Origin: a candidate division WOR-3 bacterium | GTDB taxonomy: Bacteria; Hydrothermota; Tepidihabitantia; Tepidihabitantales; Tepidihabitantaceae | DNA: 64,000 nucleotides | NCBI GenBank assembly: GCA_965649205.1 | Contig: CBFGJV010000001.1 | Location: 19,285 to 83,284 of the forward strand | Reading direction: 5' to 3' | Part shown: positions 11,028 through 46,881 of the stretch, piece by piece | Layout: every line of letters starts with the position of its first letter | Position numbering within the stretch: position 1 is the stretch's first letter | The notes under the pieces: generated by a model | The model's input: the letters and a program-made list of their open reading frames with translations, nothing else | Databases searched by the model: none | Told to the model about the DNA's origin: nothing | Position numbers and translations under genes: made by a program

Positions 11028-11098
11028 ACCAATCCGAACGCTTTATGACCAGCTCGGGATTCCCCGGGCCGGTCTCGTTTTATATGGCAACCGCACTT

Positions 11099-11273
11099 GT
11101 CGGTAGGTGAGATTCGGAATGTCAACTGCTACTGTCAAGCGTAAGAACAAAACTTCCCGACTACGTGGTGTCGGTAGGTGAGATTCGGAATGTCAACTGC
11201 TACTTGGCACGACTCGGCAAAGCATTGCAGGCAGTGGGTGTCGGTAGGTGAGATTCGGAATGTCAACTGCTAC
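11099..11273 (+). CRISPR. CRISPR mini-array: 3 direct repeats of 34 bp (GTCGGTAGGTGAGATTCGGAATGTCAACTGCTAC) separated by 2 spacers (37 and 36 bp)
   Basis: Identical repeats at 11099-11132, 11170-11203 and 11240-11273. Spacers are 11133-11169 and 11204-11239. The repeat starts 5'-GTCGG and ends ...CTAC like Cas12b repeats (e.g. Alicyclobacillus GTCGG...GGCAC). It is adjacent to cas2-cas1-cas4-cas12b. Confidence 0.85.
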
Positions 11274-11339: not shown

Positions 11340-11490
11340 GCGCCGCAAACTTTCAGTTTTGCAGGTATGCCTACTGACTAACTTCAGTTAGTAGCAAATC
11401 TTATTCTTCTGCGAGCATCCCTTGACCCCCGTTGCACCACCTGCATGCTCGCACTCCAGATTGTCAGAGAGCAGTTGACTTTCCTATTAT
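11340..11490 (+). ncRNA. candidate tracrRNA between array and cas2: two hairpins plus 3'-proximal anti-repeat
   Basis: Hairpin 11371-11394 (ctactgact...agttagtag, 9 bp with one G-U pair). Hairpin 11410-11418/11445-11453 (tgcgagcat/atgctcgca). Anti-repeat AGCAGTTGACtTTCC at 11470-11484 is complementary in 14 of 15 nt to the repeat segment GGAATGTCAACTGCT. Strand and exact ends are not resolved. Confidence 0.5.
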
Positions 11491-11619
11491 CTACCACTCG
11501 GTGCCAAGGCCGTTGAAGGCGACGACACGTTCCGAGTATTCTGCACCCCTCTAGGATGCGGTTTAAGTATATGTGCCGAAAGGAAATCGTCAAGTGTATC
11601 CGGAGTCGAGCTTCGGAGG

Positions 11620-13642: not shown

Positions 13643-16600
13643 CTACAGACCGGCCCACTCACGCAGGCGTTCAATAACCCGGAATTTCACCTTATTCCAG
13701 TACTCGATGGAGCTCTGCCAACTGTCGGATTCAATTGCTGCGGCTGACACATCGCGCCAGGCGTTGACCACGTCTTTGTCAACGGTTTCACTGAGTAGTT
13801 GCCCATTCAGGTCGAATGCCTTCGTACCCTTACACCTGTCCTTTGCCGGCTTGCCGTTCCTGCCGCAGGGGATCCACCACCACCTACCTGGCCAGTCCGG
13901 GTCCAGGAGCGCGCGCAGGCCGATGTTGGCGGCAGCATTGAGGTCGGCCTGGATGCCTTTGGACGCGGGCGAGTTTCTGTCCGCCGAGACGAAAAGTTCA
14001 CCTGAGCGGTCAAGAATCCGTACCAACTTTGTGTTGTCGGTGCAGCCGTCCCACTTCGCCTTGAGTGCTTCGAGGTACTCGTTTTCTGCTCCCGCGGCGT
14101 TTTTGACCAGCCGTTCGTAGCGCCTCAGGAATTCCGGCACAGGCAGGTCTGTGCATCTTGCGCCCGGCGCGCCGGTGCGGGAATCCTGCCGGGAGGTGTA
14201 ATTGGGTATTACTTGGCGGAGGTGCAGGCCATTCAATTCGCAGGCTTCTTTCAGATACCTGAGAACTTTTACCGCTGACCACTGCATCAATTGACGGTTC
14301 TCGCGGCGGGTGCGGATCTGCTCAGGTCGATAGGAATCCAGATTTTCAACCACAACGGCATGGCAGGGTTTAAAGCGAGGTTCGACGATTGGTTTCTGAG
14401 GCCGCTTACCCCCTTCCCAATGTTTCTTGTCTTCGGAACCGATGCCCAGCGCGGCTTCCACAATTCTGGAAGCCAGTTGTTTCACCCGGTTCTCGCGCAG
14501 ATGTTCTAGTGTATTAAGGACTCGCTGGCCGTAGTTATCCAATCGTATGTCCCCTTTTTCGGGTGTGTTTCTGCGAATGTCTTCCGGCTCCGGTCTTGTC
14601 GTGTACGCTTTCATGGCTTGCCACAATTCGCGGATGTTTGCGAGTCGGTCCAATGACAGGCCACCTACGTGTCGGATAGAGGCATCGGATTTCGGTCTGC
14701 CGCGGGGCAGTAGCCAGTTACGAAGCCAGCGAAGATGACCTTTCCATTGTTTGTCATCTTCGCGCCAACGTGTGGCCCAGATAGTGTGTAGCTTCATCCG
14801 TAACTGGGGATTGCCGGCTAGTTTCGCCGCATAGTCAGTCAGTAGTTTGCGAAGATTCCTATTGTAAGTCTTGAGGTCGGCTTGCGTTGCGTCTTCGCCT
14901 GGCGCGGGTGGAAGTTCCGCCTGCACGTATGTGTGCCACATTTCCTTGGCCCAGTCGTCGCGCCAGCGGGGGCTTTGGAACAGACTCTGCCAGAGTATCA
15001 GGGTGTCTTCTAGGAACTCTCGGCGCCTGTCCGAGGTCAATTCTTCCCAGCGGTCGCCTGGTAGCGGCTTCCGGTCGGTTTTCAGGTTAAAAGCAATTCG
15101 AGCTCGATCGCCATGGCGGCGAAGTCCGAGCCGGGCGGTGTGGACCGCATCAGCCATCAGGCTGACTATGTTGTGAGGCAGAGGGTTGTCTTTCGTTCGG
15201 ATGCGACCGAGCCAGGCTTCGAACTGCTGCACTGCTGCATATTCATCAGGCGATGCCTTCCGGCCGGTTTCATTTTCGCCCTGCAGTTTGATAAGGAATT
15301 GCCGGTCGAGTCTTGCCCACATATCCGGGCCGGTACGACGGTAAATTGTCCTAAGTCTCTTACCGTTTTGACTGAGGAGCAGATGCAGGGCAAGGTCACC
15401 GGGTTTCGGCGGCTTTCGCCCGGCCTCTACGCAGAGGCGGGTCATCTGCTCTTCGGTAAGGGTCTCCCAGACCGCACAGGCTGCCGCGTAGCGGTGGCCG
15501 AGGTCCAGTGATAGCACACGAAAGCCCGGGAATACGGCATAGCATAAGAGTGGCATGCCCTTTCCGTCCTTTATTGTCTTCAGCGTGCGGCCAGGCTTGC
15601 GGGTCCTCGTCCAGGTTGAGTCTGCGGGCCAAGGTTGCCCAAGGGCCGGCTTCCTGTGTCTGCAGGCGGCCAGAGAAGGTGATGAACCAGTTCAGGCCGT
15701 TGCGCATTTTAACAGCTTTTGCATCCCAGCCATGCTTCTGCACGCGTCTGGCTAGCCGGTCGAGCTGGGCGCGGGGCGCCTGCAGGCGGCCGTTCCAGTC
15801 CTTCTCGACGAATACATTTAGGACAAGCACAGCTGTTTCGCTGCCGATGCCGGCTGCGGCGCGGCTGAGTCGGTCGGCGCGGCTAACCCGGACACCATCC
15901 GGAGCCTGTTCTAACATTAGATCAGCAACAAGCCGCTTGGACTGCCAGAGCATTGCGGTTCTGCCAAGCGATGAGCCTGTTACGGTACGTAGCGTAAGCC
16001 GCCGGTCGGACAGGGCGGCGCGGAATCGCGCGCGGGCTTTTTCAAGTTGTTTCTGTGCCCTGAGTAGCTGGGTGGGCATTTTTTCACCAGTGGTTTCGCC
16101 ACAATACGCGAGAGACTGTTTTAATCCGTCCACTTTCAAAACCGCTTTCAGGCAGGAGTTCGCAGCTTTGTGTACGGCAAAAGAAATTGCCCAGCGAGAC
16201 TTGCCGTAGTCGCAGAACACCGGATGAGATAATGGATGAGGATGACGATAGGCCGGGACTTTGAAGCGGCGCATCTTCGCCTGGGCGTCGCGTGCGTTAA
16301 CATAGTCAAGGAGCGGCTGCGGGTCGGGTCTGCCGTTGCGCAACCAGACGATGCTGGCGCCTTCTGCAGACAATGCCTCGAACAGAGTTATGTCGCCGAA
16401 CTTCTCGATTTCGTCCTGCAGTTCTCTGGCCGCAGCCTTGCGGTCTTCGGCGGTGCGGCAGTCTCTTGCAGACCAGGCTTTCACAATTTCTTCCCAACTT
16501 TCTACCGCCCGGGGCTGAATTTGGAGCGGGCCGACCGCACCAGTCAGGCGGCCACGTTCTTCCAAGAATTCGTCCAGCCATTGTTCCACATCGGTCGGAA

Positions 16601-17816
16601 CCTGCTTTTGGGCCTGTTCCGCTAACTTCTGGCGGTTGGCTTCGGCCCGTTTTTGCCAGGAGTGGGCGGAGGAAACCCTCCTGAGTGCGAGATCCAGCAT
16701 TACCGAGTACTCGTCTGTCAGGTTCCGGCCACAGACAAAGGGTAGGCCGGTGGCTTTCTCGACGCGGGCGCGCAATGTCTCGGCCCATTTGGGCACGTTT
16801 CTAGCACCCTTTTTTATTTTCTCCATTTTCTCGTCGGCCTCGGCTGCCAGTTTGGCCTGCATAGTTGAGATCGTATCCGATGTTAGTACCGGCATGGCGT
16901 AAACTTTCTCAATAGCCAGTTTTCCCTGCGAGGGGCGACCTTTCCATCCGATGGCTTTGTAGATGCTGCTGAGCAAGTCTCCCTTTTCCGTCGCCTGAAG
17001 AAGTGTCAGAAGGTGGCTAGCCAAGGCAGAGCCGGACTGACCCTCGTAGTGGCTCAGGTCCGCAGTAGCAAGCGTGCGCAGCTTTTCTGCTATTCGCTCC
17101 AGGTCGCTTTTTTCTCCAGTTCCCCAACAGTTCACGATCCAGCTGCGAGCCTTCTCTCGAAATTTTGTTTCGTGCGCGGCCGCCGCGGTTGATCCGGATT
17201 CTGGTAGCTTGAGGAATTCGTCTAAGTCCCCAAATAACTCTCTAATCGCCGACTGCGCTTGTTCCCTGGTAAGGGTCTTATCGTTCTGCGCTTCCACGTC
17301 GAATGCCTTGGCGCGGTTGACCCAGACCGCGTCTTCTCGAATGGCGGCACAGAGCGAATCTTTGCAGTCGGCAACCCAGGTCTCGATTTCCTCCTTGGTC
17401 AGACCACGTGAGGCGAGAACTTCCTAGAGCGCGGCAACGATTTTGCACTTGCGGTCGGGCGCGGCGTCTTTGCCGGTGGCCACGATGTACTCGGCCGGAG
17501 CACCGTCGGCGGATTCAACCGAGAGCCAGGAAAGTGCGAGCATTATACGACGGTGACGAGTTTCTTGGTCGTCGGGACGGCGTTCGGTTTTCTTCTGGCC
17601 TTTTCCTTCGGTTACCGATAGCTCTGTAAGACGGTGGTCCAGACCACCGCGGAGGGTGAGGAGCCAGTCAGCGAAGACCTTGGTTCCCTTGTTGATTGTC
17701 TCGTGCGTACGCCATAGTGCCTCGCGCCAAGCCTCATCTTCGCTTCCTTCTCTGCCCGGTATGCCGCGCAGGCGCAGCGTGTAGGCCCGTTGGGTAATTG
17801 TCGCAGACGTCGTCAC
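13643..17816 (-). pseudogene. cas12b: cas12b (C2c1) type V-B effector, ~1390 codons, interrupted by an in-frame TAG (17424-17426) and a 1-nt frameshift near 15556-15563
   Basis: Three co-linear ORFs: 17816-17424, 17297-15396 and 15556-13643. The N-terminus LWRTHETINKGTKVFADWLLTLR resembles Cas12b LWKLHKEVNAGVRYYTEWLSLLR. RuvC-I is FRVLSLDLGHRYAAA, RuvC-II is AVVVENLDSYRP...RENRQLMQWS, and the Nuc/RuvC-III region is RCTDLP...WDGC...ADLNAAANIGLRAL; all three match Cas12b. The first and second ORFs share a frame, separated only by TAG. The second and third differ by +1, with the frames diverging at the homopolymer ccc/ttt (15558-15563). Confidence 0.85.
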
Positions 17817-17849
17817 CTCCTGTCGTTGCGCGGTATGCAGAAAGCTTAG

Positions 17850-18230
17850 GTGGGAAAATTGGATTTGTCAAGAGAGCGGCGGGAGGGTAGCAAGGTAGGC
17901 GGTTCGGGGAGCAGGAAGGGGATTACTCCACCAGGCGGCGGGCGGGGCGCATCAGAGGGCAGGAAGGATAGTAGGTCGCTGCATGGGAGAGTGGGCGGGT
18001 CGGTGAGGGACTCGGCGGGCGGGTGGGCTATTGGACGGGGGAGTTGCCGGGTCTGCGGCCGGGAGGACTACGGGGGATACGGACCGGTGGGCAGGTGGTG
18101 GAGTGGCTCAGGGAGCGGCGGAGCGGGCAGGAGACCGGGTTATCCGGAGAGCCACGGAGGGAGCCGCTGGGGGAGCTGGGGAGGGGGGTAACGGAGGATT
18201 TCAGGTATCAGATTGTGGTGCAAGGAGTTA
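17850..18230. repeat. G/A-rich, C-poor low-complexity tract (GGGNGGG, GGCGGGCGGG runs) in the divergent cas12b / HTH intergenic region
   Basis: The plus strand is dominated by G runs, i.e. the cas12b-sense strand is C-rich. The ORF-track protein here is Gly-rich nonsense. On the cas12b-sense strand the tract shares CCGCCCGCC/CCCACCC motifs with the 45.6-kb C-rich tract. Confidence 0.6.
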
Positions 18231-18255
18231 GGTCGCTAAGAAGCCTTGCGGACCG

Positions 18256-18273
18256 TAATACTAATGAGTATTA
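18256..18273. promoter_or_regulatory. near-palindromic operator TAATACTAATGAGTATTA 10 bp upstream of the XRE regulator start
   Basis: 9+9 inverted repeat with one mismatch. A perfect version, TAATACTCATGAGTATTA, recurs at 62189-62206. Confidence 0.6.
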
Positions 18274-18283
18274 TCAAGTCTGT

Positions 18284-18646
18284 ATGGGCCGCAGGTATGT
18301 GCAGGATTCTTTCTACTTCCCGCAGGCGCTGGGCGAGCGGCTGCGGGAGCTTAGGCTGCGGGCGGGCCTGACCCAGAAGGAGCTGGCAAGTATGGCCGGG
18401 CGGGAGTTTCGGGGCGGGCAGGCCATGGTGAGCAGGCTGGAAAGAGGCCGCATTCGGAGCCCTTCTTTGCGGTTGGTGGCGGATTTTCTGCGGGCCTGTC
18501 GAGCGAGTTTTGACGACATCCGCGATGTCCTGCACGCCTACACGGCGCAGCCATTGGTGGCGGAGAAGCGGGCAAGAAGGGCGGTGCAGAGACTGGTGGA
18601 GGTTTTGCCGGAGGGTGTGGCGGGAAGGTGGATAAGTACGATGTGA
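18284..18646 (+). CDS. XRE-family helix-turn-helix transcriptional regulator
   Basis: HTH_XRE signature LRELRLRAGLTQKELASMAG...VSRLERG. ATG at 18284. The upstream part of the ORF-track frame is G-rich non-coding. Confidence 0.75.
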   Translation: MGRRYVQDSFYFPQALGERLRELRLRAGLTQKELASMAGREFRGGQAMVSRLERGRIRSPSLRLVADFLRACRASFDDIRDVLHAYTAQPLVAEKRARRAVQRLVEVLPEGVAGRWISTM

Positions 18647-19483: not shown

Positions 19484-20149
19484 ATGAGTGAAATTTTGCG
19501 TCGAATTGCCCGAGCAGTGGAGTCAGGTCACAGCGATGCTGCATCGCCGTATCCGCCAGATATGGTGGGTGAGCCTGGCGTAGATGAACTGACTCGGCAG
19601 GCTTTGGCAGAAGGCATACAGGTAAGGCGGTTGTTGTATGAGGGTCTGGTGGCGGGAATGAAGGCTATTGGCGAGAGGTTCAGCGAGGGGAGTGCGTTTC
19701 TGCCCGAGGTTCTGATGGCGGCGCGGGCTTTGGCTGCGGGCTTTACACATCTGCAGCCGTACTTTTCGTCTGGCGCAGTGAAGCATAAGGGGACGGTGAT
19801 TCTGGGTACAGTACAGGGCGACTTGCACGATATCGGCAAGAAGATTGTGGGTCTGTTTTTTAACGGGGCAGGGTGGAGAGTGGTGGATTTGGGCGTGGAT
19901 GTGCCGCTGGAACGGTTTCTGGCCGCAATCGAGGAGCACAAGCCGCAGGCAGTGGGCTTGAGCACGCTCTTGACTACGACTATGCCGAGCATGGCAAAGA
20001 TTACGGCTGGCATAAAATCCCGGTATCCAGAGTTGAAGGTGGTGGTAGGGGGTGCGCCTTTGACTGCTGAGTTTGCCGCCAGCATAGGGGCGGACTTTTA
20101 TGGCGCGGACCCGCAGATGGCCTTAGACTATCTGGACGGTGCGGTATGA
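19484..20149 (+). CDS. corrinoid (cobalamin-binding) protein, MttC/MtbC-like
   Basis: B12-binding DxHxxG motif (QGDLHDIGKKIV) and a Rossmann B12 domain. ~220 aa, typical of methyltransferase cognate corrinoid proteins. Confidence 0.85.
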   Translation: MSEILRRIARAVESGHSDAASPYPPDMVGEPGVDELTRQALAEGIQVRRLLYEGLVAGMKAIGERFSEGSAFLPEVLMAARALAAGFTHLQPYFSSGAVKHKGTVILGTVQGDLHDIGKKIVGLFFNGAGWRVVDLGVDVPLERFLAAIEEHKPQAVGLSTLLTTTMPSMAKITAGIKSRYPELKVVVGGAPLTAEFAASIGADFYGADPQMALDYLDGAV

Positions 20150-21231
20150 CGAGCAGGGAAGTTATTACCGCGTTGGTGAGGGATAAGGAATGTCCCGAAC
20201 GAGTGGGGCATCAGGAGAGTTTTTGGGAGGACTTGCGACCGGCCTGGGAAGAGCAGGGGTTGCCGCGCGAGGGCCGCATGCAGGAGATTCTGGACTTGGA
20301 TATTATTCCCATAAACGAAGAGTGGACCAGCACCGAGGCGCGAGTGGGCTACAGGCGAATTCTGGAGGAGACAGAAACAACCTATGTGGAAGAGAACGGT
20401 TGGGGTTCGGTGATGCGTTATTGGAAAGGAAAGTCTGGCACCCCAGAGCATCTGTCCTTTGCCCTGACCGACGAGAAGGTATGGAAGGAGAAGTACCGGG
20501 ACCTTTTGACGAGTTTTGATATCCGCCGTCTGGGAGACCTGGAAAGATTGAAGAAGAGGTATCGCGAGCTGGAGTCTTCGGACAAGTTCCGGGTTTACGA
20601 GGTGCTGCAGATATTTGAGATAATGCGGCAGGCGATGGGCGATGTGATAATGCTGGAGGCGATGTGTTTGAATCCGGCCTGGATAACGGATTTCTGCACG
20701 GTAATGACCGATAACATCATTATGCACCTGGAGTATGAGATACGGGAGGTTGGCCTGCCGGACGGTATCTGGTTCTATGAGGACCTGGGTTATCGGCATC
20801 TGCCTTTTGTCTCGCCGCAGATGTATAGAGACCTTCTGCTGCCGCATCACCGTCGGTTTGTGGATTTCTGTCACAGTTATGGTCTGCCGGTGATAATGCA
20901 TACCTGCGGCAATATCGCTCCTCTCTTTCCTTATCTTCTGGAAACGGGTATAGATTGTTTGCAGCCGCTGGAAGCCAAGACCGGGCAGAATTTTATCAAG
21001 ATGGCCGAACTGGCTTCCCGGCGCATAGCTTATATGGGGAATATGGATATCCGGGCGTTTGAGACTAATGACCCGCAGGCCTTGGCGGCAGAAATTTTGC
21101 CCAAGCTGCAGGCGGCGATAGAGAAACGGATACCTTACATTTTCCATTCCGACCACAGTATTCCCCGTACGGTCAAGCTGGCCACCTATCGCTACGCCCG
21201 AGCGTTGGTTGATGAGTACGGTCGTTACTGA
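20146..21231 (+). CDS. uroporphyrinogen-decarboxylase-family methylcorrinoid methyltransferase (MtaA/MtbA/MtgA-like)
   Basis: 361 aa with URO-D fold features. The context between a corrinoid protein and an MttB-family gene indicates a corrinoid:acceptor methyltransferase. Confidence 0.65.
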   Translation: MTSREVITALVRDKECPERVGHQESFWEDLRPAWEEQGLPREGRMQEILDLDIIPINEEWTSTEARVGYRRILEETETTYVEENGWGSVMRYWKGKSGTPEHLSFALTDEKVWKEKYRDLLTSFDIRRLGDLERLKKRYRELESSDKFRVYEVLQIFEIMRQAMGDVIMLEAMCLNPAWITDFCTVMTDNIIMHLEYEIREVGLPDGIWFYEDLGYRHLPFVSPQMYRDLLLPHHRRFVDFCHSYGLPVIMHTCGNIAPLFPYLLETGIDCLQPLEAKTGQNFIKMAELASRRIAYMGNMDIRAFETNDPQALAAEILPKLQAAIEKRIPYIFHSDHSIPRTVKLATYRYARALVDEYGRY

Positions 21232-21246
21232 AACTGAGGGGGAAAA

Positions 21247-22707
21247 ATGAGACCAAAGTTGAAGCTGCTTAGCGAGGGACTTGTTGAGCAGATTGTAGCC
21301 GAGGCACTGGACCTGCTGGCCGTGTTGGGAGTAGAAATAAACAACCCCGGGCTGGTTGAACTGCTGTTGGCCCAGGGCGCAGAATGGGATACCGAGAAGA
21401 AAAGGTTGCTGTTGCCCGAGTCCATGGTGAGGCAGGCTTTGGCTGCTGCTCCGTGTTCGTTCCGGTTGTATGATGTGCGAGGGGAGATGACAAATGAACT
21501 GGGGGGTGATAATGTGTATTTCACCCCGGGTTCTGCGGCGTTGAACATTCTGGATGCAGATACCGGCGAGATGAGACGACCACAGACGCGTGATTACGTG
21601 CAGTATGCCAAGCTGGTGTCGCGTTTAGAACACATTGCGGCCCAGTCCACAGCCCTGATACCGGCAGATGTGCCGGAGAAGATTTCGGACAGCTATCGGT
21701 TGTATCTGTCGTTGCTGTTCTGTGAGAAGCCGGTGGTTACCGGCTGTTTTACGATAGAGTCCTTTCGAGTAATGAAGGAAATGCAGGTGGCGGTGCGGGG
21801 TTCTGAAGAGGAGCTTGTCGCCCGGCCCCTGACCATTTTTTCCTGCTGTCCGACCGCGCCTCTGAAGTGGAGCGAGGTGACTTCGCAGAATGTGGTGGAT
21901 TGTGCGCGGGCCGGTATCCCGGTGGAGTTTATCTCCATGCCTTTGTCCGGCTTTGTGGCGCCTGTCACCCTGGTGGGCACTTTGATTCAGCATACGGCGG
22001 AGACCCTGTCGGGTGTGGTTATCAGTCAAACAGTCGCGCCGGGTTCGCCGATTCTTTATGGCGGTTCGCCGGCGATTTTTGATGTGCGCCGAGAAACTAC
22101 CCCGATGGGCGCCATAGAGACGATGATGATTGACTGTGCCAGTGCAGAAATAGGTAAGTACCTGGGTTTGCCCACGCAGGCTTACATCGGTCTTTCCGAC
22201 GCGAAGCTGCTGGACGCACAAGCCGGGCTGGAAACAGGCATCGGCGCAGTTCTGGCCGCCTTGGCAGGCGTGAACAGCGTGTCTGGTCCGGGCATGCTGG
22301 ATTTTGAGAGTTGTCAGAGTCTGGAGAAGCTGGTGCTGGATAATGAGATATGCGGCATGGCGCTGCGGCTGGTGCGGGGTATTGAGCCGCACGAGGACTT
22401 TCCGGCCTTGAATCTTTTCACCGAACTGTTGAGTGAGAAACATTTGCTTATCAGTCCGCATACCAGGCGCTGGCTGAAGACAGAGCACTACTTTCCCGGG
22501 CCGGTGATAGACCGGGCAAACAGAGGACGCTGGCAGGCTGCCGGTAGTCCTACTCTTTTGGCACGGGCGCGCCGGGAAAAGGAGCGCTTGATCGCCAGCT
22601 GGCAGCCGTCCCGTCTGGCAGAAGAGACAAAAAAGGAACTTACCCGGCTGATGACCACAGAGGCCCGGCGCTGGGGGATGGAACAGCTGCCAGAACTGCC
22701 CGCATGA
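21247..22707 (+). CDS. MttB-superfamily (non-pyrrolysine) quaternary-amine:corrinoid methyltransferase (MtgB/MtqB-like)
   Basis: 486 aa, the length and architecture of the trimethylamine methyltransferase family. Uninterrupted ORF with no in-frame amber codon. GGGAAAAATG RBS. Confidence 0.75.
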   Translation: MRPKLKLLSEGLVEQIVAEALDLLAVLGVEINNPGLVELLLAQGAEWDTEKKRLLLPESMVRQALAAAPCSFRLYDVRGEMTNELGGDNVYFTPGSAALNILDADTGEMRRPQTRDYVQYAKLVSRLEHIAAQSTALIPADVPEKISDSYRLYLSLLFCEKPVVTGCFTIESFRVMKEMQVAVRGSEEELVARPLTIFSCCPTAPLKWSEVTSQNVVDCARAGIPVEFISMPLSGFVAPVTLVGTLIQHTAETLSGVVISQTVAPGSPILYGGSPAIFDVRRETTPMGAIETMMIDCASAEIGKYLGLPTQAYIGLSDAKLLDAQAGLETGIGAVLAALAGVNSVSGPGMLDFESCQSLEKLVLDNEICGMALRLVRGIEPHEDFPALNLFTELLSEKHLLISPHTRRWLKTEHYFPGPVIDRANRGRWQAAGSPTLLARARREKERLIASWQPSRLAEETKKELTRLMTTEARRWGMEQLPELPA

Positions 22708-23432
22708 GACGAGTATTGCGTTTTGCCGCACAGGACTGCAGACCGAGCGAGGAGATGATACTTGCAGGAGAGGGAATGCCCGGCCGGGCTGGAGCGCAAC
22801 CCGAAACCTTGCGGCTGGTGGTTGAAGCCGGGGAATTGTACGAGAGGCTGGCTGCACCGGTGGCCGTGTACGCCAAGATCAGTCGCGAGGAATTCGGCAG
22901 GGTCTTTGTCGGCGAAGGTCGTAATGCGCCAGATGCAGTGCTGGGCAGGATTTATCCCCAGGCGGTCCGTTTGGCTCTTTTTGCCTGTACGGTGGGGAAG
23001 GCTTTGACAGACGAAATCACGCGGCGTTTTGAGCAGCACGATTATGCTCTGGGCTATGTGCTGGATGCTGTGGCTTCGGCTGGAGTGGAAAAATTGGCTG
23101 CACTGGTGGAGGCTGAATACTGCAGGGAAAACAGAGAACAGAAGTCTGGCGGGGAGGATTCGAAAACGGTGCTGAGGTATAGTCCGGGTTACTGCGGCTG
23201 GCATGTGAGCGGCCAGCGCAAGCTGTTTGAGTTTCTCCATCCGGAGGAGATTGGCATTACTCTGCGCGAGAGCTTTCTGATGGAGCCTTTGAAGTCGGTC
23301 TCGGGCGTGTTTGTGGCCGGGCCGGCCGCAATCCACCGTTTTCAGCCGGCTACATTCGTCTTTTGCGCAGAGTGTCGTCAACCGAGCTGCACAGAACGGT
23401 TGGCAGAACTAGAACAACGAACTGGGAGGTGA
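22704..23432 (+). CDS. methionine-synthase activation (AdoMet reactivation) domain protein
   Basis: LRYSPGYCGW...LRESFLMEPLKSVSGVFVAGP aligns to the MetH C-terminal block RPAPGYPACPE...LTESFAMWPGASVSGWYFSHP. Confidence 0.7.
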   Translation: MRRVLRFAAQDCRPSEEMILAGEGMPGRAGAQPETLRLVVEAGELYERLAAPVAVYAKISREEFGRVFVGEGRNAPDAVLGRIYPQAVRLALFACTVGKALTDEITRRFEQHDYALGYVLDAVASAGVEKLAALVEAEYCRENREQKSGGEDSKTVLRYSPGYCGWHVSGQRKLFEFLHPEEIGITLRESFLMEPLKSVSGVFVAGPAAIHRFQPATFVFCAECRQPSCTERLAELEQRTGR

Positions 23433-23436
23433 CAGA

Positions 23437-24075
23437 GTGGAATTGCTGCAGCAGATAGCAGACAGTCTGTGCGCAGGAGAATCAGAACGGGTAGCGCAGC
23501 TGACCCGTCGGGCACTGGATGCCGGCCTTGCGGGCCGCGAGGTCCTGGACAAAGGGTTGCTTGCCGGTATGGACCGGGTAGGCAGGTTGTTTCAAGAGGA
23601 AGAAGTGTTCCTGCCGGATGTGTTGCTTGCGGCCAAGGCGATGTATGCCGGGTTGGAGGTGCTGAAGCCTTTGTTGGAGCAGCAGGGGACAGGCGCGGCC
23701 GCCGGCAAGGTGGTTATCGGGACTGTGCAGGGTGATTTGCACGACATAGGCAAGAATCTGGTGACTATCATGCTGCGGGGCGCAGGGTTTGAGGTGATTG
23801 ACTTGGGCAATGACGTGGCACCGGAGAAATTCATTCAGGTGGCGTGCGAGCAGAATTGTCAGATTATAGGCATGTCCGCACTTCTGACTACTACGATGCC
23901 CGTAATGGGAGAGGTATGCGAGTTGCTGAGAGAAAAAAATCTTGCCGGCAGGATAAAGACGATAATCGGCGGTGCACCGGTGAGCGAGGCTTTTGCCCGC
24001 GAGATAGGGGCGGATGCTTACTGTTATGACGCAGCAGCGGCGGTTGCAACTGTCAAACGTCTTCTTTCTCAGTGA
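23437..24075 (+). CDS. second corrinoid (B12-binding) protein, MetH B12-domain-like
   Basis: DxHxxG motif QGDLHDIGKNLV. 212 aa. Located between the activation-domain and Hcy-domain genes. Confidence 0.85.
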   Translation: MELLQQIADSLCAGESERVAQLTRRALDAGLAGREVLDKGLLAGMDRVGRLFQEEEVFLPDVLLAAKAMYAGLEVLKPLLEQQGTGAAAGKVVIGTVQGDLHDIGKNLVTIMLRGAGFEVIDLGNDVAPEKFIQVACEQNCQIIGMSALLTTTMPVMGEVCELLREKNLAGRIKTIIGGAPVSEAFAREIGADAYCYDAAAAVATVKRLLSQ

Positions 24076-25013
24076 AAACAGACGAACAGGGAGGTAAGAC
24101 GTTGTCCAGACGGGAAAGGCTGTGGGAACGGGTGAGGTCTGGTCAGGTTCTCCTTGCCGATGGCGCACTGGGTTCTTTGCTGCTGGCGAAGGGTTTGAAA
24201 CCCGGGCAGGCACCTGAAGAATTGTGTCTTTCTCGGCCGGAAGTTCTGGCTGAGATTGTACGTCTTTACCAGGAGGCGGGCGCAGAGGTTTTTCAGGCGA
24301 ATACCTTTGGTGCGTCGCCTCTGAAGCTGGAGCAGCACGGTTTGGCCGAAAAAATGGAGGAGATAAACCGGCAGGCGGTAAGAATCGTGCGGGAAGTGGT
24401 GGGGGAGGAGGGGTATGTATGGGCTTCGGTAGGTCCTTCCGGTCGTCTACTGGAACCGTACGGAGATGTCTCAGCCGAAAGGATGTATGAGAATTTTGCC
24501 CGGCAGACAACCGTGTTGGCAGAAGCCGGTGCGGACATTATCGCCATTGAGACTATGACCGATCTGGCCGAGGCAAAGCTGGCGCTGGCAGCCGCCGTGG
24601 ATACTGGCAGAGCCAGCGGGGCGGTGATTACGGTTTCCCTGACTTTCGAAAAGCGGCGCCGAGGGTTCTTTACGGTCATGGGCAACTCCATCGCTGATGC
24701 CGTTGCCGCTTTGGCTGACGCAGACATGATTGGCTCTAACTGCGGCAATGGTATGGATAATATGGTGGAGATTGCCCGAGAGTTCCGCCGGCTGACGGAT
24801 AAGCTGCTGGTAATCAGACCGAATGCCGGTCTGCCTGAAATTCGCAACGGTGCGGTTGTGTATCCGGAGACGCCAGAGTTTATGGCCGAGCGGATTCCGG
24901 CACTTCTGGAATGCAAGCTGGGTATTCTGGGAGGTTGTTGTGGCACGACGCCTGAGCATATACGTGCCTTCCGGCGGGTACTGGAGAAAGAACAGAGCAG
25001 ACGGTCGGGTTAG
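24072..25013 (+). CDS. homocysteine S-methyltransferase domain protein (MetH N-terminal Hcy-binding domain-like)
   Basis: ADGALGSLLL (compare MetH LDGGMGT) and the zinc-binding GGCCGTTPEHI motif near the C-terminus. Confidence 0.8.
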   Translation: MKTDEQGGKTLSRRERLWERVRSGQVLLADGALGSLLLAKGLKPGQAPEELCLSRPEVLAEIVRLYQEAGAEVFQANTFGASPLKLEQHGLAEKMEEINRQAVRIVREVVGEEGYVWASVGPSGRLLEPYGDVSAERMYENFARQTTVLAEAGADIIAIETMTDLAEAKLALAAAVDTGRASGAVITVSLTFEKRRRGFFTVMGNSIADAVAALADADMIGSNCGNGMDNMVEIAREFRRLTDKLLVIRPNAGLPEIRNGAVVYPETPEFMAERIPALLECKLGILGGCCGTTPEHIRAFRRVLEKEQSRRSG

Positions 25014-45045: not shown

Positions 45046-45190
45046 GGTTTTGGTCTCCAGTTCTCGAACCGTGCTTGATTTTTGCGTCTAAGAGAACCAA
45101 TCATGGTGAAAAAGGTGGAAGTAAGATACAGCAAAACCTTTATGCGTCAAGCCAGGAAAGACAAGAGGGCGGCGTGGAACCGCCCTCTGA

Positions 45191-45265
45191 TAGCCCCATG
45201 GGGATTTGAACCCCAGTCTTCTGGCTGAGAACCAGATGTCCTAGGCCGGACTAGACGATGGGGCC
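45191..45265 (-). tRNA. tRNA-Glu (anticodon CUC)
   Basis: The reverse complement gives GGCCCCATCGTCTAGTCCGGCCTAGGACATCTGGTTCTCAGCCAGAAGACTGGGGTTCAAATCCCCATGGGGCTA, a 75-nt cloverleaf. The 7-bp acceptor stem starts with a G-U pair. The anticodon loop is TTCTCAG (CUC). The D-arm resembles bacterial tRNA-Glu. No CCA is encoded. Confidence 0.9.
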
Positions 45266-45559
45266 ACAGACATTCGTCTATTGGCCAATAATAGCTTTGG
45301 AATTGAAGGTGTCAATGTCAAGGTTTTCGCTAGAAGCGCCAGCCAAGGCCCAGCGTAAGCTCCTGTCTCGGACTGGCGCGTTTCCTATGAGAGCTGCAGC
45401 GCCGGCAACTCGTCAGGGTCAGGCACAGGCAATGGGAAAATGCTCTTGCCCGCCTGCGGCACAACCCGCTTCAGTATCCCACGCCCTTTAGACTCTTGAT
45501 GTCGGTTCCTCTTGGTGTTTGCTAAAAAGCACTTGACCTTATTACCTACCAAAGTACCC

Positions 45560-45960
45560 GCGCCTACCGTTATGCGGCCAGACAGCTTCCTCAACTGCTC
45601 CCTGACCAGCCTGGCCGGCAACTCACAGACCGGCCTACTCAGCCGCCCGCCAAGCGACCAGCTAAGCCACTCACCCAGCCGCCCCTCTGACAACTCTCCC
45701 TCCCATTCTCCCTTCTGCCTGCCAACCTGCCCTCTAAACAGCTCTCCAGACCACCCACCAGCCAGCCTACTCCCCGACCCCCCTCCCGACCCGGCTAACT
45801 ACTCGCCAAACCACCCGCCTCACCGCCCGGTATTCTGCTCCCAGAACAACCCGCCAGACCGCCCACCCAGCAGTCTCCCCAGCGACCCCCCTACGAAAAA
45901 GCTTCACTTACAACACTGATCCGCCGCCCTTACAGCCGTACCGCCTCTCTACCGCACACA
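45560..45960. repeat. C/A-rich, G-depleted low-complexity tract with degenerate CCAGNCCGCCCACCCAGC-like units, inside a ~940-bp gene-free region
   Basis: The plus strand is almost devoid of G. Motifs CCGCCCGCC, CCCACCC and CTCCC recur. The only ORF here is a Pro-rich compositional artefact. Confidence 0.6.
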
Positions 45961-46209
45961 CATTTACGAAATTTCCTCCCCGCGGCATATAAAACTATAG
46001 AGGCGAAAAATGAAAAACATCCCCCTCCGGTCCGAAACCAGACAACTCCACGCCCGCATCCGCTCTTAGGAATACATAAATACGTCTTGCATGTTGGTGC
46101 TGAGAGACTACAATCTGGCGTGAGATGTGTTGGCAGGTTCCCGGCTCGGGGCAGAAAGAGCGGTACAAGAAGTTAAGGAACGTGCCCGGCTTTGCGTGAC
46201 GAGGTATAG

Positions 46210-46881
46210 ATGGCTCGGTCAGTGAAACTAGCCACGTCTGGGGGGTGGCGTTGCTTCTACTGCAACACATTTGTTAACAGAGAGATGGAAAAGTGTCCGA
46301 GCTGTGGGTGTGAGTTTGTTCAAACAGGCAGGGATGAGGGTGGGGTCAAAGAGCCTGAGGCCGAGAACTCGTCTGGCCGTTCTGTGCGCCTCCAGCAATC
46401 ATTTAGGGTTCGCAGACAGAGTTACACAATTCCTTTGATAGTACTGGCGATCTGCTCGTTCCTGCTGGCCGTTCTGCTCAGGCCAAAACCCCGCCATGGT
46501 GTACTTCTGTCTGAGCCAGGCACGCCTCGGCCAAGCTACAGGATTCTGGAAATGCGGCAGCTCCCTTTGCAAGGTATCAACAGGATTAGTTTAGTCGGGC
46601 TAGCGAGACCAGAGCTTCCCGATGAGAGCTTCAAAGCCGTGCTGGACTGGATGTTGTACAATACCCTATACAGCGAGAATCATCTGCGGCGCCAAGCCGT
46701 ACGAGTAGTATGGGCATATGTCCTTACCGATTCTCTCGCTCCCAGATCGCATTGGAGGGCTATGGCAATCTGGACGGATTCGTTACTACCCAAACCTCTG
46801 CGTCCGGCCGGAATCGGAGGCGATGCTATCAGGCAAGGCCAGGTTGAGTACGACGTTACCAATCCGCTGTTGCAACGCTAG
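46210..46881 (+). CDS. hypothetical membrane protein with N-terminal zinc-ribbon (CxxC..CxxC)
   Basis: CFYCNTFVNREMEKCPSCGC, one TM helix (IPLIVLAICSFLLAVLL), and a C-terminal domain of unknown function. Confidence 0.45.
   Translation: MARSVKLATSGGWRCFYCNTFVNREMEKCPSCGCEFVQTGRDEGGVKEPEAENSSGRSVRLQQSFRVRRQSYTIPLIVLAICSFLLAVLLRPKPRHGVLLSEPGTPRPSYRILEMRQLPLQGINRISLVGLARPELPDESFKAVLDWMLYNTLYSENHLRRQAVRVVWAYVLTDSLAPRSHWRAMAIWTDSLLPKPLRPAGIGGDAIRQGQVEYDVTNPLLQR

Follow-up and report, generated by a model that had tools for sequence, protein, structure and literature searches.

Hidden in-register arrays of degenerate 12-nt units upstream of an ECF-sigma operon and of cas12b in a candidate division WOR-3 bacterium: a possible protein-binding platform

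The C-rich tract between a tRNA-Glu gene and a zinc-ribbon/ECF-sigma operon of a candidate division WOR-3 bacterium is in fact a hidden array: some 26 degenerate units of 12 nt each follow one another in strict register, a pattern that goes beyond base composition. A second tract in the window (the whole 64-kb stretch of DNA that was analysed), located upstream of cas12b, is best explained as another array of the same kind which has diverged independently. We call the tract next to tRNA-Glu array 1; it probably represents a functional non-coding element, and we found no description of its kind. Judging from its sequence features, we assign a probability of roughly 30% to the reading in which it is a non-coding periodic binding platform, whose C-rich strand would act as an extended Rho-loading (rut) site insulating the downstream operon.

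The coordinates of all features are collected in Table 1. Array 1 lies on the 5' (promoter) side of tRNA-Glu, in a gap of 943 bp up to position 46210 which, in agreement with the preliminary description of this DNA, contains no supported gene. Its neighbours are etfB and etfA in one direction; in the other, the zinc-ribbon gene is followed in order by ECF sigma, anti-sigma, DUF4097 and PDZ genes. On either side the nearest promoter-like site is about 200 nt away, and the array is located at a synteny breakpoint. An imperfect inverted repeat of 21 nt (45158-45178 and 46047-46067, 71% complementary) was also seen in this region and was judged to be at chance level.

Array 2 is located at the edge of a CRISPR-cas block, where an XRE-type HTH gene and cas12b diverge across it. 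The stretch 17826-18300 is G-rich on the plus strand and hence C-rich along the sense strand of cas12b. In either array the C-rich strand has the sense orientation of the gene that follows. The -35 element of cas12b, read by eye, is 16 nt from the end of the array, and the cas12b gene itself is interrupted, the N-terminus of its product being one that we take to resemble Cas12b. At the other end, the HTH start codon is 105 nt from the array and is preceded by a promoter-like site (18246-18274) and a palindrome (18256-18273), both read by eye.

Table 1. Features at and around the two arrays (positions in the window)
Feature	Position	Strand	Basis or remark
First of three ORFs forming the interrupted cas12b gene (13643-17816)	17424-17816	-	
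Candidate cas12b promoter: TTGACA, 17-nt spacer, TAAGCT	17843-17871	-	By eye; absent from scan output
Array 2 core, 24 units, same 12-column profile, C/G 2.7	17888-18179	-	Phase track, unit table, cross-validated profile, pattern
XRE-type HTH gene, ATG at 18284	18246-18646	+	Pfam HTH_31
Terminator-like hairpin 3' of the tRNA gene	45164-45188	-	Consensus scan
tRNA-Glu (anticodon CUC)	45189-45266	-	ARAGORN; Rfam tRNA, 56.8 bits
Non-periodic spacer from tRNA promoter to array 1; ordinary composition, no 12-nt signal	45267-45569	.	
Promoter-like site of the tRNA gene: TTGACA, 16-nt spacer, TATTAT, 11/12 matches	45288-45315	-	Consensus scan
135-codon open frame over array 1; taken as arising from the pattern rather than as a gene	45512-45919	+	
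Array 1 core, 26 in-phase 12-nt units	45570-45885	+	Spectrum, phase track, unit table, shuffles, pattern
Tail past array 1: C-rich until ~45960 but off register, ordinary sequence after	45886-46086	+	Phase track, spectrum
Candidate zinc-ribbon gene promoter: TTGCAT, 16-nt spacer, TACAAT	46087-46114	+	By eye; under scan threshold
Zinc-ribbon membrane protein gene	46210-46881	+	Heads block conserved in relatives

The region 45526-46075 has the most extreme GC skew of the window, reaching -0.61 in 200-nt windows compared to a window mean of +0.09 (sd 0.13). The tract had been described as C-rich and almost G-free; it is indeed C-rich (C 47%, A 22%, T 16% and G 15% over 45540-45990), but with this G content the second part was overstated. 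About 60% of the Gs fall on every fourth base. The degenerate units quoted in the preliminary description were all found (CCAGACCGCCCACCCAGC at 45854, CCGCCCGCCAAGCGACCAGC at 45643 and CTCCCTCCCATTCTCCC at 45696). Period-4 power amounts to 15.7 in array 1 and 7.8 in array 2 compared to 0.67±0.41 in shuffled sequences, and the summed power of the 12-nt harmonics to 25.9 and 18.6 compared to about 3.3±1.0. Neither of these values, nor the power observed at period 2.4 in either array, was reached by any of 2000 shuffles.

The unit of array 1 consists of three C-Y-N-R tetramers, with the consensus nCnRCYYnCYna. When the unit positions are numbered from 0, C is found at positions 1, 4 and 8 (in 76-96% of units), a purine at position 3 and a pyrimidine at positions 5, 6 and 9, while the remaining positions are free; as C is kept at positions 1, 4 and 8, its spacing is exactly 12 nt. 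Not a single indel interrupts the register over the approximately 300 nt of either array. Conservation is unevenly distributed over the unit positions (chi-square p = 1e-7 and 7e-4 for the two arrays), and a pyrimidine occupies position 3 in only 1/26 and 1/24 units, against an overall pyrimidine content of 64-68% (p ~1e-10). Each unit carries little information, some 6-7 bits. Unit identity is 0.48 and 0.445 within the arrays and 0.454 between them, and in both arrays adjacent units are no more similar than units lying far apart. Tandem Repeats Finder (TRF) with a minimum score of 30 reported nothing in either tract, nor did a general repeat search. An ordinary microsatellite or VNTR was rejected on these grounds, the unit identity of 0.45-0.48 staying below the ~70% needed and TRF being silent.

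The two tracts had previously been proposed to be related, with the absence of a significant alignment beyond base composition named as the outcome that would refute this. Pairwise, that outcome is indeed obtained (Smith-Waterman score 28 compared to 25.7±3.1), yet it misses a periodic profile which the two tracts share, and the relationship holds at the level of this profile rather than of alignment. In one register, r between their 12-column profiles is 0.87, and what remains once period 4 is taken out still correlates with r = 0.70; for this remainder the other registers give -0.48 and -0.23. With a profile derived from either array, the other scores +55.6 and +73.4 bits, where shuffles under the same cross-profile score -139±13 and -109±12 bits, and 7- and 8-mers shared between the tracts are in excess. 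A three-unit IUPAC pattern, allowing at most one mismatch, gave 26 matches in the window, all within the two tracts, against a chance expectation of 0.09±0.29. Spectral, profile and pattern scans picked out no other stretch of this kind in the 64 kb, the profile scan placing array 1 at 45558-45917 and array 2 at 17868-18203. The common 12-nt profile, together with the C-rich strand being sense to the next gene in both cases, thus bears out the earlier view of two copies of one kind of element. Two more specific roles were considered and rejected. For a Cas12b tracrRNA, no anti-repeat is present in 17817-18283, the best complement to the repeat being found at about 11441-11520, adjoining the CRISPR array. 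For the target of a diversity-generating retroelement, no reverse transcriptase domain occurs in the large ORFs of the window and the tracts cannot be aligned as a template/variable pair.

Five stand-alone 12-nt arrays of about 20-26 units were found in four related MAGs. They carry other motifs (CTGAGT+N6, CAAAGRCYnnnA and N6+RGATTC), none of which is C-rich. The period of every strong array found is 12 nt or a multiple of it, with about 20-26 units. One of them (L133) begins 2 nt from a -35 element, and the units of another (L002) contain the palindromic pentamer CTSAG. At the Rfam gathering threshold the arrays of the relatives gave no match. At the array 1 locus, the array is missing in 7/8 relatives examined (L001, L003-L006, L008 and L132), further related loci covering 56 kb, which partly overlap this region, contain no array, and the window's own profile detected no third copy in ~225 kb of relatives plus the window. 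In a close relative with a 94%-identical ECF sigma (Logan SRR32459165) the contig starts inside the zinc-ribbon gene, so that the tract lies outside it, and a metagenome scan with EtfB returned two short loci only, with ~50% identity.

Array 1 could be a small stand-alone gene encoding a disordered [S/D/N]-x-[S/P]-P repeat protein, with array 2 as its decayed paralogue: a 12-nt unit corresponds to four codons, and the array is covered by an open frame of 135 codons, in which an ATG (45572) coincides with the array start. The better-conserved arrays of the relatives lend themselves to a similar interpretation: that of L133 can be translated as K-[A/T]-x-T, its wobble base being Y, and in L002 the codons CTG, CTC and TTG all specify Leu, but the coding-like frames of the relatives each contain a stop. 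We consider a coding function quite improbable. Period-3 power is ~1.7 compared to 0.65 in shuffles and forms no spectral peak, whereas real genes reach 5-20 times the median. In every frame the most conserved bases occupy wobble positions; in the frame of array 1, two of the four codon slots have a wobble C in 25/26 and 23/26 units, compared to 31-56% of such codons in the window's real genes, and codon slots 1 and 2 never encode K, E or Q. The open frames end at the array edges, no Shine-Dalgarno sequence was seen before the ATG at 45572, and in array 2 the equivalent frame has two stops, the sole open frame being on the opposite (G) strand. The 135-aa frame is absent from the public protein collection, a search of 5.8 billion protein sequences giving no match and one of 1.84 billion representatives retrieving only two unrelated repeat proteins.

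Viral contigs would speak for a coding reading, since 12-nt arrays there are often part of long open frames, 31/80 lying inside frames of at least 300 codons. A five-unit IUPAC pattern had at least 120 matches in viral contigs, all of them near-perfect 12- or 4-nt tandem repeats, which are not comparable to the present arrays; degenerate arrays escape such exact-pattern scans. The arrays thus share with coding tetrapeptide repeats the 12-nt period and at least one stop-free frame, but whereas such repeats in viral contigs are near-perfect and frequently belong to open frames of 300 codons or more, the arrays stand alone, are degenerate and are blind to codon structure.

A functionless origin would be cryptically simple DNA, in which an old 12-nt (3 x 4) minisatellite, generated by slippage at rearrangement junctions, is now decaying. 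The sporadic distribution of the arrays, including the absence from 7/8 relatives at the locus and from the 56 kb of further related loci, would fit such an origin, as would the separate motif of every array and the placement of array 1 at a synteny breakpoint and of array 2 where the CRISPR-cas block ends. Uniform decay, however, cannot yield some positions that are 88-96% conserved and others that are randomised, nor can decay give the same profile to two arrays that are not alignable. The similarity between neighbouring units expected of ongoing slippage is absent, some 300 nt of supposedly unconstrained DNA have remained without an indel, and the strong arrays all agree in period (12 or a multiple) and in number of units (~20-26). 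On balance we regard a decaying minisatellite as unlikely.

From the combination of fixed positions, free positions and absence of indels we infer a row of protein contact sites, and among the proposals of the preliminary description the 'protein-binding platform' stays the most plausible class of explanation. Such sites could be read on double-stranded DNA, as head-to-tail weak 12-bp sites for a DNA-binding or nucleoid protein which, positioned between divergent promoters, would set the activity of these promoters or couple them. Each array, a series of direct repeats of fixed spacing (12-bp register, 24-26 units), is enclosed by back-to-back promoter-like sites, and the invariant spacing with a fixed block and a free spacer has the look of site arrays. 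Also in line with a duplex binder are the 16 nt separating array 2 from the cas12b -35 and the 105 nt separating its other end from the XRE HTH gene, the 2 nt between the L133 array and a -35, and the palindromic pentamer in the L002 units. A protein bound to the duplex, on the other hand, would meet successive tetramers on different helix faces, which leaves the 4-bp sub-period without an obvious meaning, and with ~6-7 bits a unit carries little information. The motif differs per genome, which would require a protein of its own each time, some 200 nt separate array 1 from each promoter, and no candidate binder is common to both loci: the XRE HTH gene flanks array 2, and nothing comparable stands beside array 1. 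A duplex-binding array is therefore a possibility that we rate as rather unlikely. Known iteron and centromere arrays, such as parC, parH and the TubR-binding 12-bp tubC repeats, comprise 4-20 well-conserved repeats on plasmids or phages, beside the gene of the binding protein. The present arrays resemble them in consisting of direct ~12-bp head-to-tail repeats adjoining promoters, but are chromosomal, far more degenerate and without partition genes nearby.

In the reading that we favour, the array would offer a row of weak, regularly spaced contacts to an oligomeric nucleic-acid-binding protein, the likeliest partner being Rho, the termination factor, with RNA of the C-rich strand as its substrate. 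Any untranslated transcript that passes through the array on its way to the zinc-ribbon/ECF-sigma operon or to cas12b would load Rho, and its synthesis would end. In this orientation-specific way the array would insulate or attenuate, and the genes behind it would be expressed from the promoters closest to them. Rut sites are unstructured stretches of at least 70-80 nt with more C than G and with Cs every 11-13 nt (PMC6407284); each Rho monomer has a single 5'-YC pocket, and rut sites are described as having no consensus (PMC9499579). Array 1 measures 316 nt with a C/G ratio of 3.1 and array 2 measures 292 nt with a ratio of 2.7, their Cs are exactly 12 nt apart, and they contain 3.7-4.3 YC dinucleotides per 12 nt. 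The C strand of array 1 is predicted to fold with -51.9 kcal/mol over 316 nt (z +0.6 compared to shuffles) and that of array 2 folds no better than shuffles either (z -1.3); at -0.16 and -0.24 kcal/mol per nt, the centroid structures are mostly unpaired. The arrays thus have in common with rut sites the large excess of C over G, weak folding, dense YC dinucleotides, Cs ~12 nt apart and a position on the sense strand before a gene. They differ from known rut sites in length, ~300 nt or roughly four Rho footprints compared to ~80 nt, and in possessing a strict register, a 4-nt sub-period and an obligatory purine.

Rho would account for the 12-nt spacing and the C-richness, but not obviously for the 4-nt sub-period or the obligatory purine. 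A consensus scan upstream of both arrays on the C-rich strand found no promoter-like site and, as the flanking genes diverge, there is no obvious source of read-in transcription, which counts against Rho loading. Likewise, the abutment of array 2 and of the L133 array on a -35 suits a DNA-level upstream element no less well, if not better. Among the large ORFs of the window no rho gene is present. Finally, because the arrays of the relatives are not C-rich, Rho cannot be the common partner if all arrays form one class.

The G-rich strand might instead be the active one, either through G-quadruplexes or R-loops between the divergent promoters or as a GGA-rich, CsrA-like sponge RNA. The unit itself dictates a GG every 4 nt, in array 1 the folding of the G-rich strand is stronger than in shuffles (z -4.3), and array 2 contains 21 GGA (13.1±2.6 expected) and 12 GGAG (6.3±2.1 expected). 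Against this, each array holds only one canonical G4 motif, (G3+ N1-7)x4, compared to 1.1-1.3 in shuffles, and GGG runs are not enriched. In array 1 GGA is not enriched (10 compared to 11.4±2.7), in array 2 the G-rich strand shows no folding signal (z -0.4), and the unit has a pyrimidine after G, which disfavours GGA. This makes an active G-rich strand very unlikely.

Least probable of all, to the point of being barely credible, are the other two proposals made earlier for this DNA, a scar left by integration at the tRNA gene, and a structured leader or sRNA common to both tracts. They drew on the tract adjoining a tRNA gene at a locus unlike that of the relatives, and on two copies standing ahead of unrelated operons. 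The tract, however, is on the 5' side of the tRNA gene, no integrase or other mobile-element gene is nearby, and the best second copy of a tRNA segment measures 12 nt and lies elsewhere in the window (E = 0.21), which does not amount to an attachment-like repeat; no tRNA-Thr remnant is present. As for a structured RNA, the Rfam 15 covariance models matched the tRNA only, at the gathering threshold as well as at E<=1, and the C strand shows no excess folding (z +0.6 and -1.3). Candidate promoters, read by eye and unreported by the scan, lie downstream of both arrays; if these promoter-like sites are real, the arrays are not proximal 5' UTRs, which speaks against a leader of the downstream genes.

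Some known systems share part of these properties. Like the cyanobacterial STRR (short tandemly repeated repetitive) arrays, the present ones are lineage-restricted short tandem repeats that are non-coding, strand-asymmetric and without assigned function, but STRR arrays are near-perfect 7-mers, whereas these are 12-mers of ~45-50% identity, invisible to TRF, with fixed and free positions interleaved. The TRAP protein, a known ring protein, binds 11 (G/U)AG triplets with a 5-6-nt period in the trp leader. Short conserved contacts, free spacers of fixed length and an unstructured strand are common to TRAP sites and the arrays, which differ in having a period of 12 (3 x 4) nt, 24-26 repeats and a putative partner only. 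TMECO is a single 37-nt triplex motif with a C-rich stem and two G-rich stems on one strand (PMC4666352). It is similarly G/C-rich, strand-asymmetric, intergenic, found at rearranged loci and without assigned function, but the arrays are C-rich throughout on one strand, periodic and without a mirror or triplex arrangement.

Taking window and relatives together, we tentatively suggest that WOR-3 bacteria may carry an undescribed class of stand-alone ~300-bp arrays of 20-26 phased 12-nt units, in which the motif differs and period and length are kept, and which would dock an oligomeric nucleic-acid-binding protein (Rho or another RNA- or DNA-binding factor). Its two members in the window stand before cas12b and before the ECF-sigma operon. 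If the arrays are functionless, constrained-looking periodicity can arise in prokaryotic intergenic DNA, which calls for caution with composition-based scans. As array 2 is directly upstream of the promoter-like site of cas12b, its nature bears on the control of nuclease expression. If Rho is the partner, the arrays would come closer to an ideal rut site than any natural one known, and would give a direct handle on how the spacing of YC contacts relates to Rho loading. If functional, they would mean that bacteria can use long regulatory or architectural signals made solely of register and few constrained bases per 12 nt, which escape alignment, tandem-repeat finders and RNA-family models, and a simple spectral scan would then reveal a new class of elements in uncultured lineages.

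The 943 bp between tRNA-Glu and the zinc-ribbon membrane protein gene hold no supported gene, only short ORFs, and contain the strongest GC skew of the whole window (45526-46075; 200-nt windows fall to -0.61, whereas the whole window averages +0.09 with a standard deviation of 0.13), with 47% C, 22% A, 16% T and 15% G over 45540-45990. The plus strand of a second tract (17826-18300) is rich in G. Its C-rich strand is accordingly the one that is sense for cas12b, a minus-strand gene whose first ORF starts at 17816; in both tracts, C-richness is found on the strand that is sense for the next gene. Fourier spectra of either tract had their top peak at a period of 4.0 nt, with 21-fold and 13-fold the median power, and further peaks near 12, 2.4 and 2.0 nt, which all belong to the harmonic series of 12 nt. 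In the periodic cores, array 1 (beside tRNA-Glu) and array 2 (upstream of cas12b), period-4 power was 15.7 and 7.8 against 0.67±0.41 for shuffled sequences (reached by 0 and 0 of 2000), period-2.4 power 4.2 in both against about 0.66±0.41 (0 and 0 of 2000), period-12 power 3.8 and 1.75 against 0.68±0.43 (1 and 51 of 2000), and the summed 12-nt harmonics 25.9 and 18.6 against about 3.3±1.0 (0 and 0 of 2000). A sliding phase track followed a single register without any indel over ~45570-45885 and, on the minus strand, over ~18180-17890. Statistically, the feature is robust, and we regard it as real.

The repeat rule is a tetramer C-Y-N-R or, written as a 12-mer, n-C-n-R-C-Y-Y-n-C-Y-n-a. Counting unit positions from 0, array 1 has C at position 1 (96%), a purine at 3 (96%), C at 4 (88%), a pyrimidine at 5 (100%) and C at 8 (85%); positions 0, 2, 7 and 10 are near random. 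Standard tandem-repeat detection returned nothing for either array, and with three detectors no other part of the window reached half their score. The preliminary description had claimed that the C-rich tracts in front of two unrelated operons are related, and all units that it quoted are present in the tract; the relationship was borne out by a shared 12-column profile and not by local alignment, the comparison it had proposed, which gave an insignificant score of 28 against 25.7±3.1 for shuffles. Between the matrices of the two arrays the correlation is r = 0.87 in one of the three registers and, once the period-4 component is taken out, still 0.70; the other two then give -0.48 and -0.23. 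Scoring each array with the profile of the other yielded +55.6 and +73.4 bits relative to the composition of the scored array, against -139±13 and -109±12 bits for shuffled sequence, and a three-unit IUPAC pattern allowing at most one mismatch had 26 matches in the window, all within the two tracts and nearly all in a single register, with 0.09 expected. Judged by their profiles, the two tracts are clearly related.

Three results argue against mere decay of a perfect repeat. Conservation is unequal across unit positions (chi-square p = 1e-7 and 7e-4); position 3 is a pyrimidine in only 1/26 and 1/24 units, though the sequence is 64-68% pyrimidine (p ~1e-10); and neighbouring units are no more alike than distant ones in both arrays, unit similarity being 0.454 between arrays and 0.48 and 0.445 within them. 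Because of these results the units resemble independent draws from one position-specific rule, and we infer that selection acts on the array pattern. A functionless minisatellite at rearrangement junctions, rather unlikely next to these results, would suit the position of array 1 at a synteny breakpoint, since the block on its right (zinc-ribbon gene, ECF sigma factor, its zf-HC2 anti-sigma factor, DUF4097 and PDZ, with the two factors downstream of the zinc-ribbon gene) is kept in relatives and its left flank (etfBA, tRNA-Glu) is not. The earlier suggestion of an integration scar did not hold, as the array lies on the 5' side of the tRNA and the window contains no second copy of any tRNA stretch above 12 nt; nor did the locus contain a remnant of the tRNA-Thr found in relatives. 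An imperfect inverted repeat bracketing the tRNA and array 1 was judged to be at chance level.

Array 1 lies inside an open frame of 135 codons (45512-45919) that would encode tetrapeptides of the form [S/D/N]-x-[S/P]-P. As a gene it was rejected: Fourier analysis found no period-3 peak in either tract (5-20 times the median in the window's real genes), the wobble C is near-invariant in two of four codon slots (25/26 and 23/26), and two stops interrupt the corresponding frame of array 2, where the only open frame lies on the opposite strand of the pattern. Variation at the first two bases of these C-ending slots yields R, D, H, N, C, S, Y and G, whereas K, E and Q never occur; in the window's real genes, C is the last base of 31% of such codons, or of 56% within NRY families. 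Open frames all stop 0-26 codons from the array edges, as expected of a stop-poor pattern alone. The frame is absent and without relatives in a collection of 5.8 billion proteins, and among 1.84 billion representatives it matched only two unrelated Cys-rich and Ser-rich repeat proteins. On balance we consider a tetrapeptide-repeat ORF unlikely. A DGR reading of the NNC codons found no support, the window containing no reverse transcriptase.

By a motif-free scan for 12-nt harmonics of ~225 kb (the window and related loci, a sample of the neighbourhoods of one gene cluster), five more strong in-phase arrays of ~20-26 units each were found in four related MAGs. Both arrays subjected to the shuffle test (L002 and L004) gave 0/2000. 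Autocorrelation at lags 2-60 revealed no array of comparable strength at any other period, and a further 56 kb of fetched loci, partly of the same region, held no array. The motif differs from array to array and C-richness is limited to the two of the window; period, size (~240-310 bp), layout of fixed and free positions and absence of indels recur. No supported gene covers the five, a gene without Pfam match being called over part of two, and since some can be read in a coding-like way, if with one in-frame stop each, these may be coding. Upstream of the zinc-ribbon gene, where the window has tRNA-Glu(CUC) and an array, L002 has an array without tRNA, L132 an RRM gene, and six relatives a tRNA-Thr(CGU) 100-240 bp away on the opposite strand, without skewed tract. 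In a close relative (L131, Logan SRR32459165_467996; ECF sigma 94% identical) the contig begins inside the zinc-ribbon gene, so that the assembly breaks just before the expected array site. At least 120 viral contigs (IMG/VR) carry near-perfect 12-nt and 4-nt tandem arrays matching (CNRCYNNCYNNN)x5; of 80 located away from contig ends, 31 fall within open frames of 300 codons or more, and many are therefore probably coding tetrapeptide repeats.

Features at the two arrays and in related genomes (window coordinates; prefix L, fetched loci of relatives)
Feature	Position	Strand	Remarks
Array 1	45570-45885	+	26 units
Array 2	17888-18179	-	24 units
tRNA-Glu (anticodon CUC)	45189-45266	-	
Promoter-like site, tRNA-Glu	45315-45288	-	near-consensus; consensus scan
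Terminator-like hairpin, tRNA-Glu	45188-45164	-	consensus scan
Inverted repeat	45158-45178 / 46047-46067		21 nt, 71% complementary
Promoter-like hexamers, zinc-ribbon gene	46087-46114		by eye; outside array 1
Zinc-ribbon membrane protein gene	46210-46881	+	next supported gene after tRNA-Glu
CRISPR array	11096-11273		
Candidate anti-repeat (tracrRNA)	~11441-11520		
cas12b	13643-17816	-	interrupted
Promoter-like site, cas12b	17871-17843	-	TTGACA-17-TAAGCT; by eye; -35 16 nt from array 2 end
Promoter-like site, XRE HTH gene	18246-18274		by eye; outside array 2
Palindrome TAATACTAATGAGTATTA	18256-18273		
Corrinoid methyltransferase cluster	19484-25013		
MttB-family ORF	21247-22707		
Rfam PYLIS_3 match	22192-22291		pyrrolysine insertion
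Array	L002:8906-9217		26 units; YTSASn + N6; upstream of zinc-ribbon orthologue, position orthologous to array 1
Array	L004:5847-6086		~20 units; AGYntnsnrgky
Array	L133:6760-7047		24-25 units; CAAAGRCYnnnA; begins 2 nt from promoter-like -35 of radical-SAM gene
Array	L136:133-408		~24 units; N6 + RGATTC
Array	L136:661-905		~20 units; nRGnnnCARSnn
tRNA-Thr(CGU)	L001:9823-9896		
tRNA-Thr(CGU)	L003:2957-3030		
tRNA-Thr(CGU)	L004:1217-1290		
tRNA-Thr(CGU)	L005:3429-3501		
tRNA-Thr(CGU)	L006:3018-3090		
tRNA-Thr(CGU)	L008:9757-9829		

At the border of a type V-B locus (cas12b, cas4, cas1 and a three-repeat CRISPR array), cas12b and an XRE HTH gene diverge, and array 2 occupies the gap that separates them. 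The cas12b gene is interrupted by an in-frame TAG (17424-17426) and a frame change within 15396-15556, leaving three ORFs of 130, 633 and 637 codons, and is either a pseudogene or an assembly error. The three CRISPR repeats, GTCGGTAGGTGAGATTCGGAATGTCAACTGCTAC, presumably read on the plus strand by analogy with known Cas12b repeats, in which case this array and the cas genes would point towards each other. Tract 2 was rejected as tracrRNA, because the best anti-repeat lies just past the CRISPR array and none upstream of cas12b. The apparent promoter of the XRE HTH gene (ATG at 18284) is ~9 nt from the start codon, so its mRNA would be nearly leaderless, and it overlaps the palindrome, which is likely an auto-operator; the frame is open upstream as far as 18023, into array 2. 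Further along, the PYLIS_3 match falls within the MttB-family ORF of the methyltransferase cluster, which is uninterrupted, without in-frame TAG, and probably a non-pyrrolysine MttB homologue.

Among the promoter-like sites flanking both arrays, the scan tool supported that of tRNA-Glu only. Provided that the sites read by eye are genuine, each array is placed between back-to-back promoters and not in proximal 5' UTRs; an iteron-like array acting at the DNA level between promoters would be a tentative and rather unlikely explanation. Cyanobacterial STRR heptamer arrays, TRAP-type arrays and iteron arrays resemble the 12-nt arrays in layout, although these differ from each in period, degeneracy, copy number or context, and a literature search found no comparable periodic arrays.

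At the RNA level, the structured leader or sRNA of the preliminary description failed to materialise: no known (Rfam-type) family matched the arrays, and the C-rich strands of both fold weakly, no better than shuffles. We hold this idea, like that of a scar, to be highly improbable. A function on the G-rich strand would agree with the complement of array 1, which folds better than shuffles (-132.5 kcal/mol, z -4.3), and with GGA enrichment in array 2 only; it appears very unlikely, the G-rich strand of array 2 folding no better than shuffles (z -0.4) and G-quadruplex motifs and GGG runs being at chance level in both.

The window's arrays are constrained, strictly phased, non-coding-looking and present twice with one profile. 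Fixed contacts and a free spacer of invariant length would suggest that an oligomeric protein binds at a row of sites, and Rho on C-rich RNA is the partner best supported by sequence, at a probability of about 0.3. Rho utilisation (rut) sites are at least 70-80 nt long, richer in C than G and unstructured, with Cs every 11-13 nt (PMC6407284), and each Rho monomer has one 5'-YC pocket (PMC9499579). With a C/G ratio of ~3 over ~300 nt, weakly folding C-rich strands, Cs exactly 12 nt apart and 3.7-4.3 YC dinucleotides per unit, the arrays would qualify as rut sites in every sequence-level respect, but differ from them in length, strict register and sub-period. Against Rho, no promoter-like site was found upstream of either array, the 4-nt sub-period and obligatory purine are not accounted for, and the arrays of relatives are not C-rich. 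We would place the feature either with C-rich tracts of the rut-like kind or with short-repeat arrays, and there is a substantial chance that the arrays belong to an undescribed class of periodic platform. Should Rho be the partner, it would load on the C-rich RNA of the array, which would thereby stop untranslated transcripts heading for cas12b or the ECF-sigma operon.
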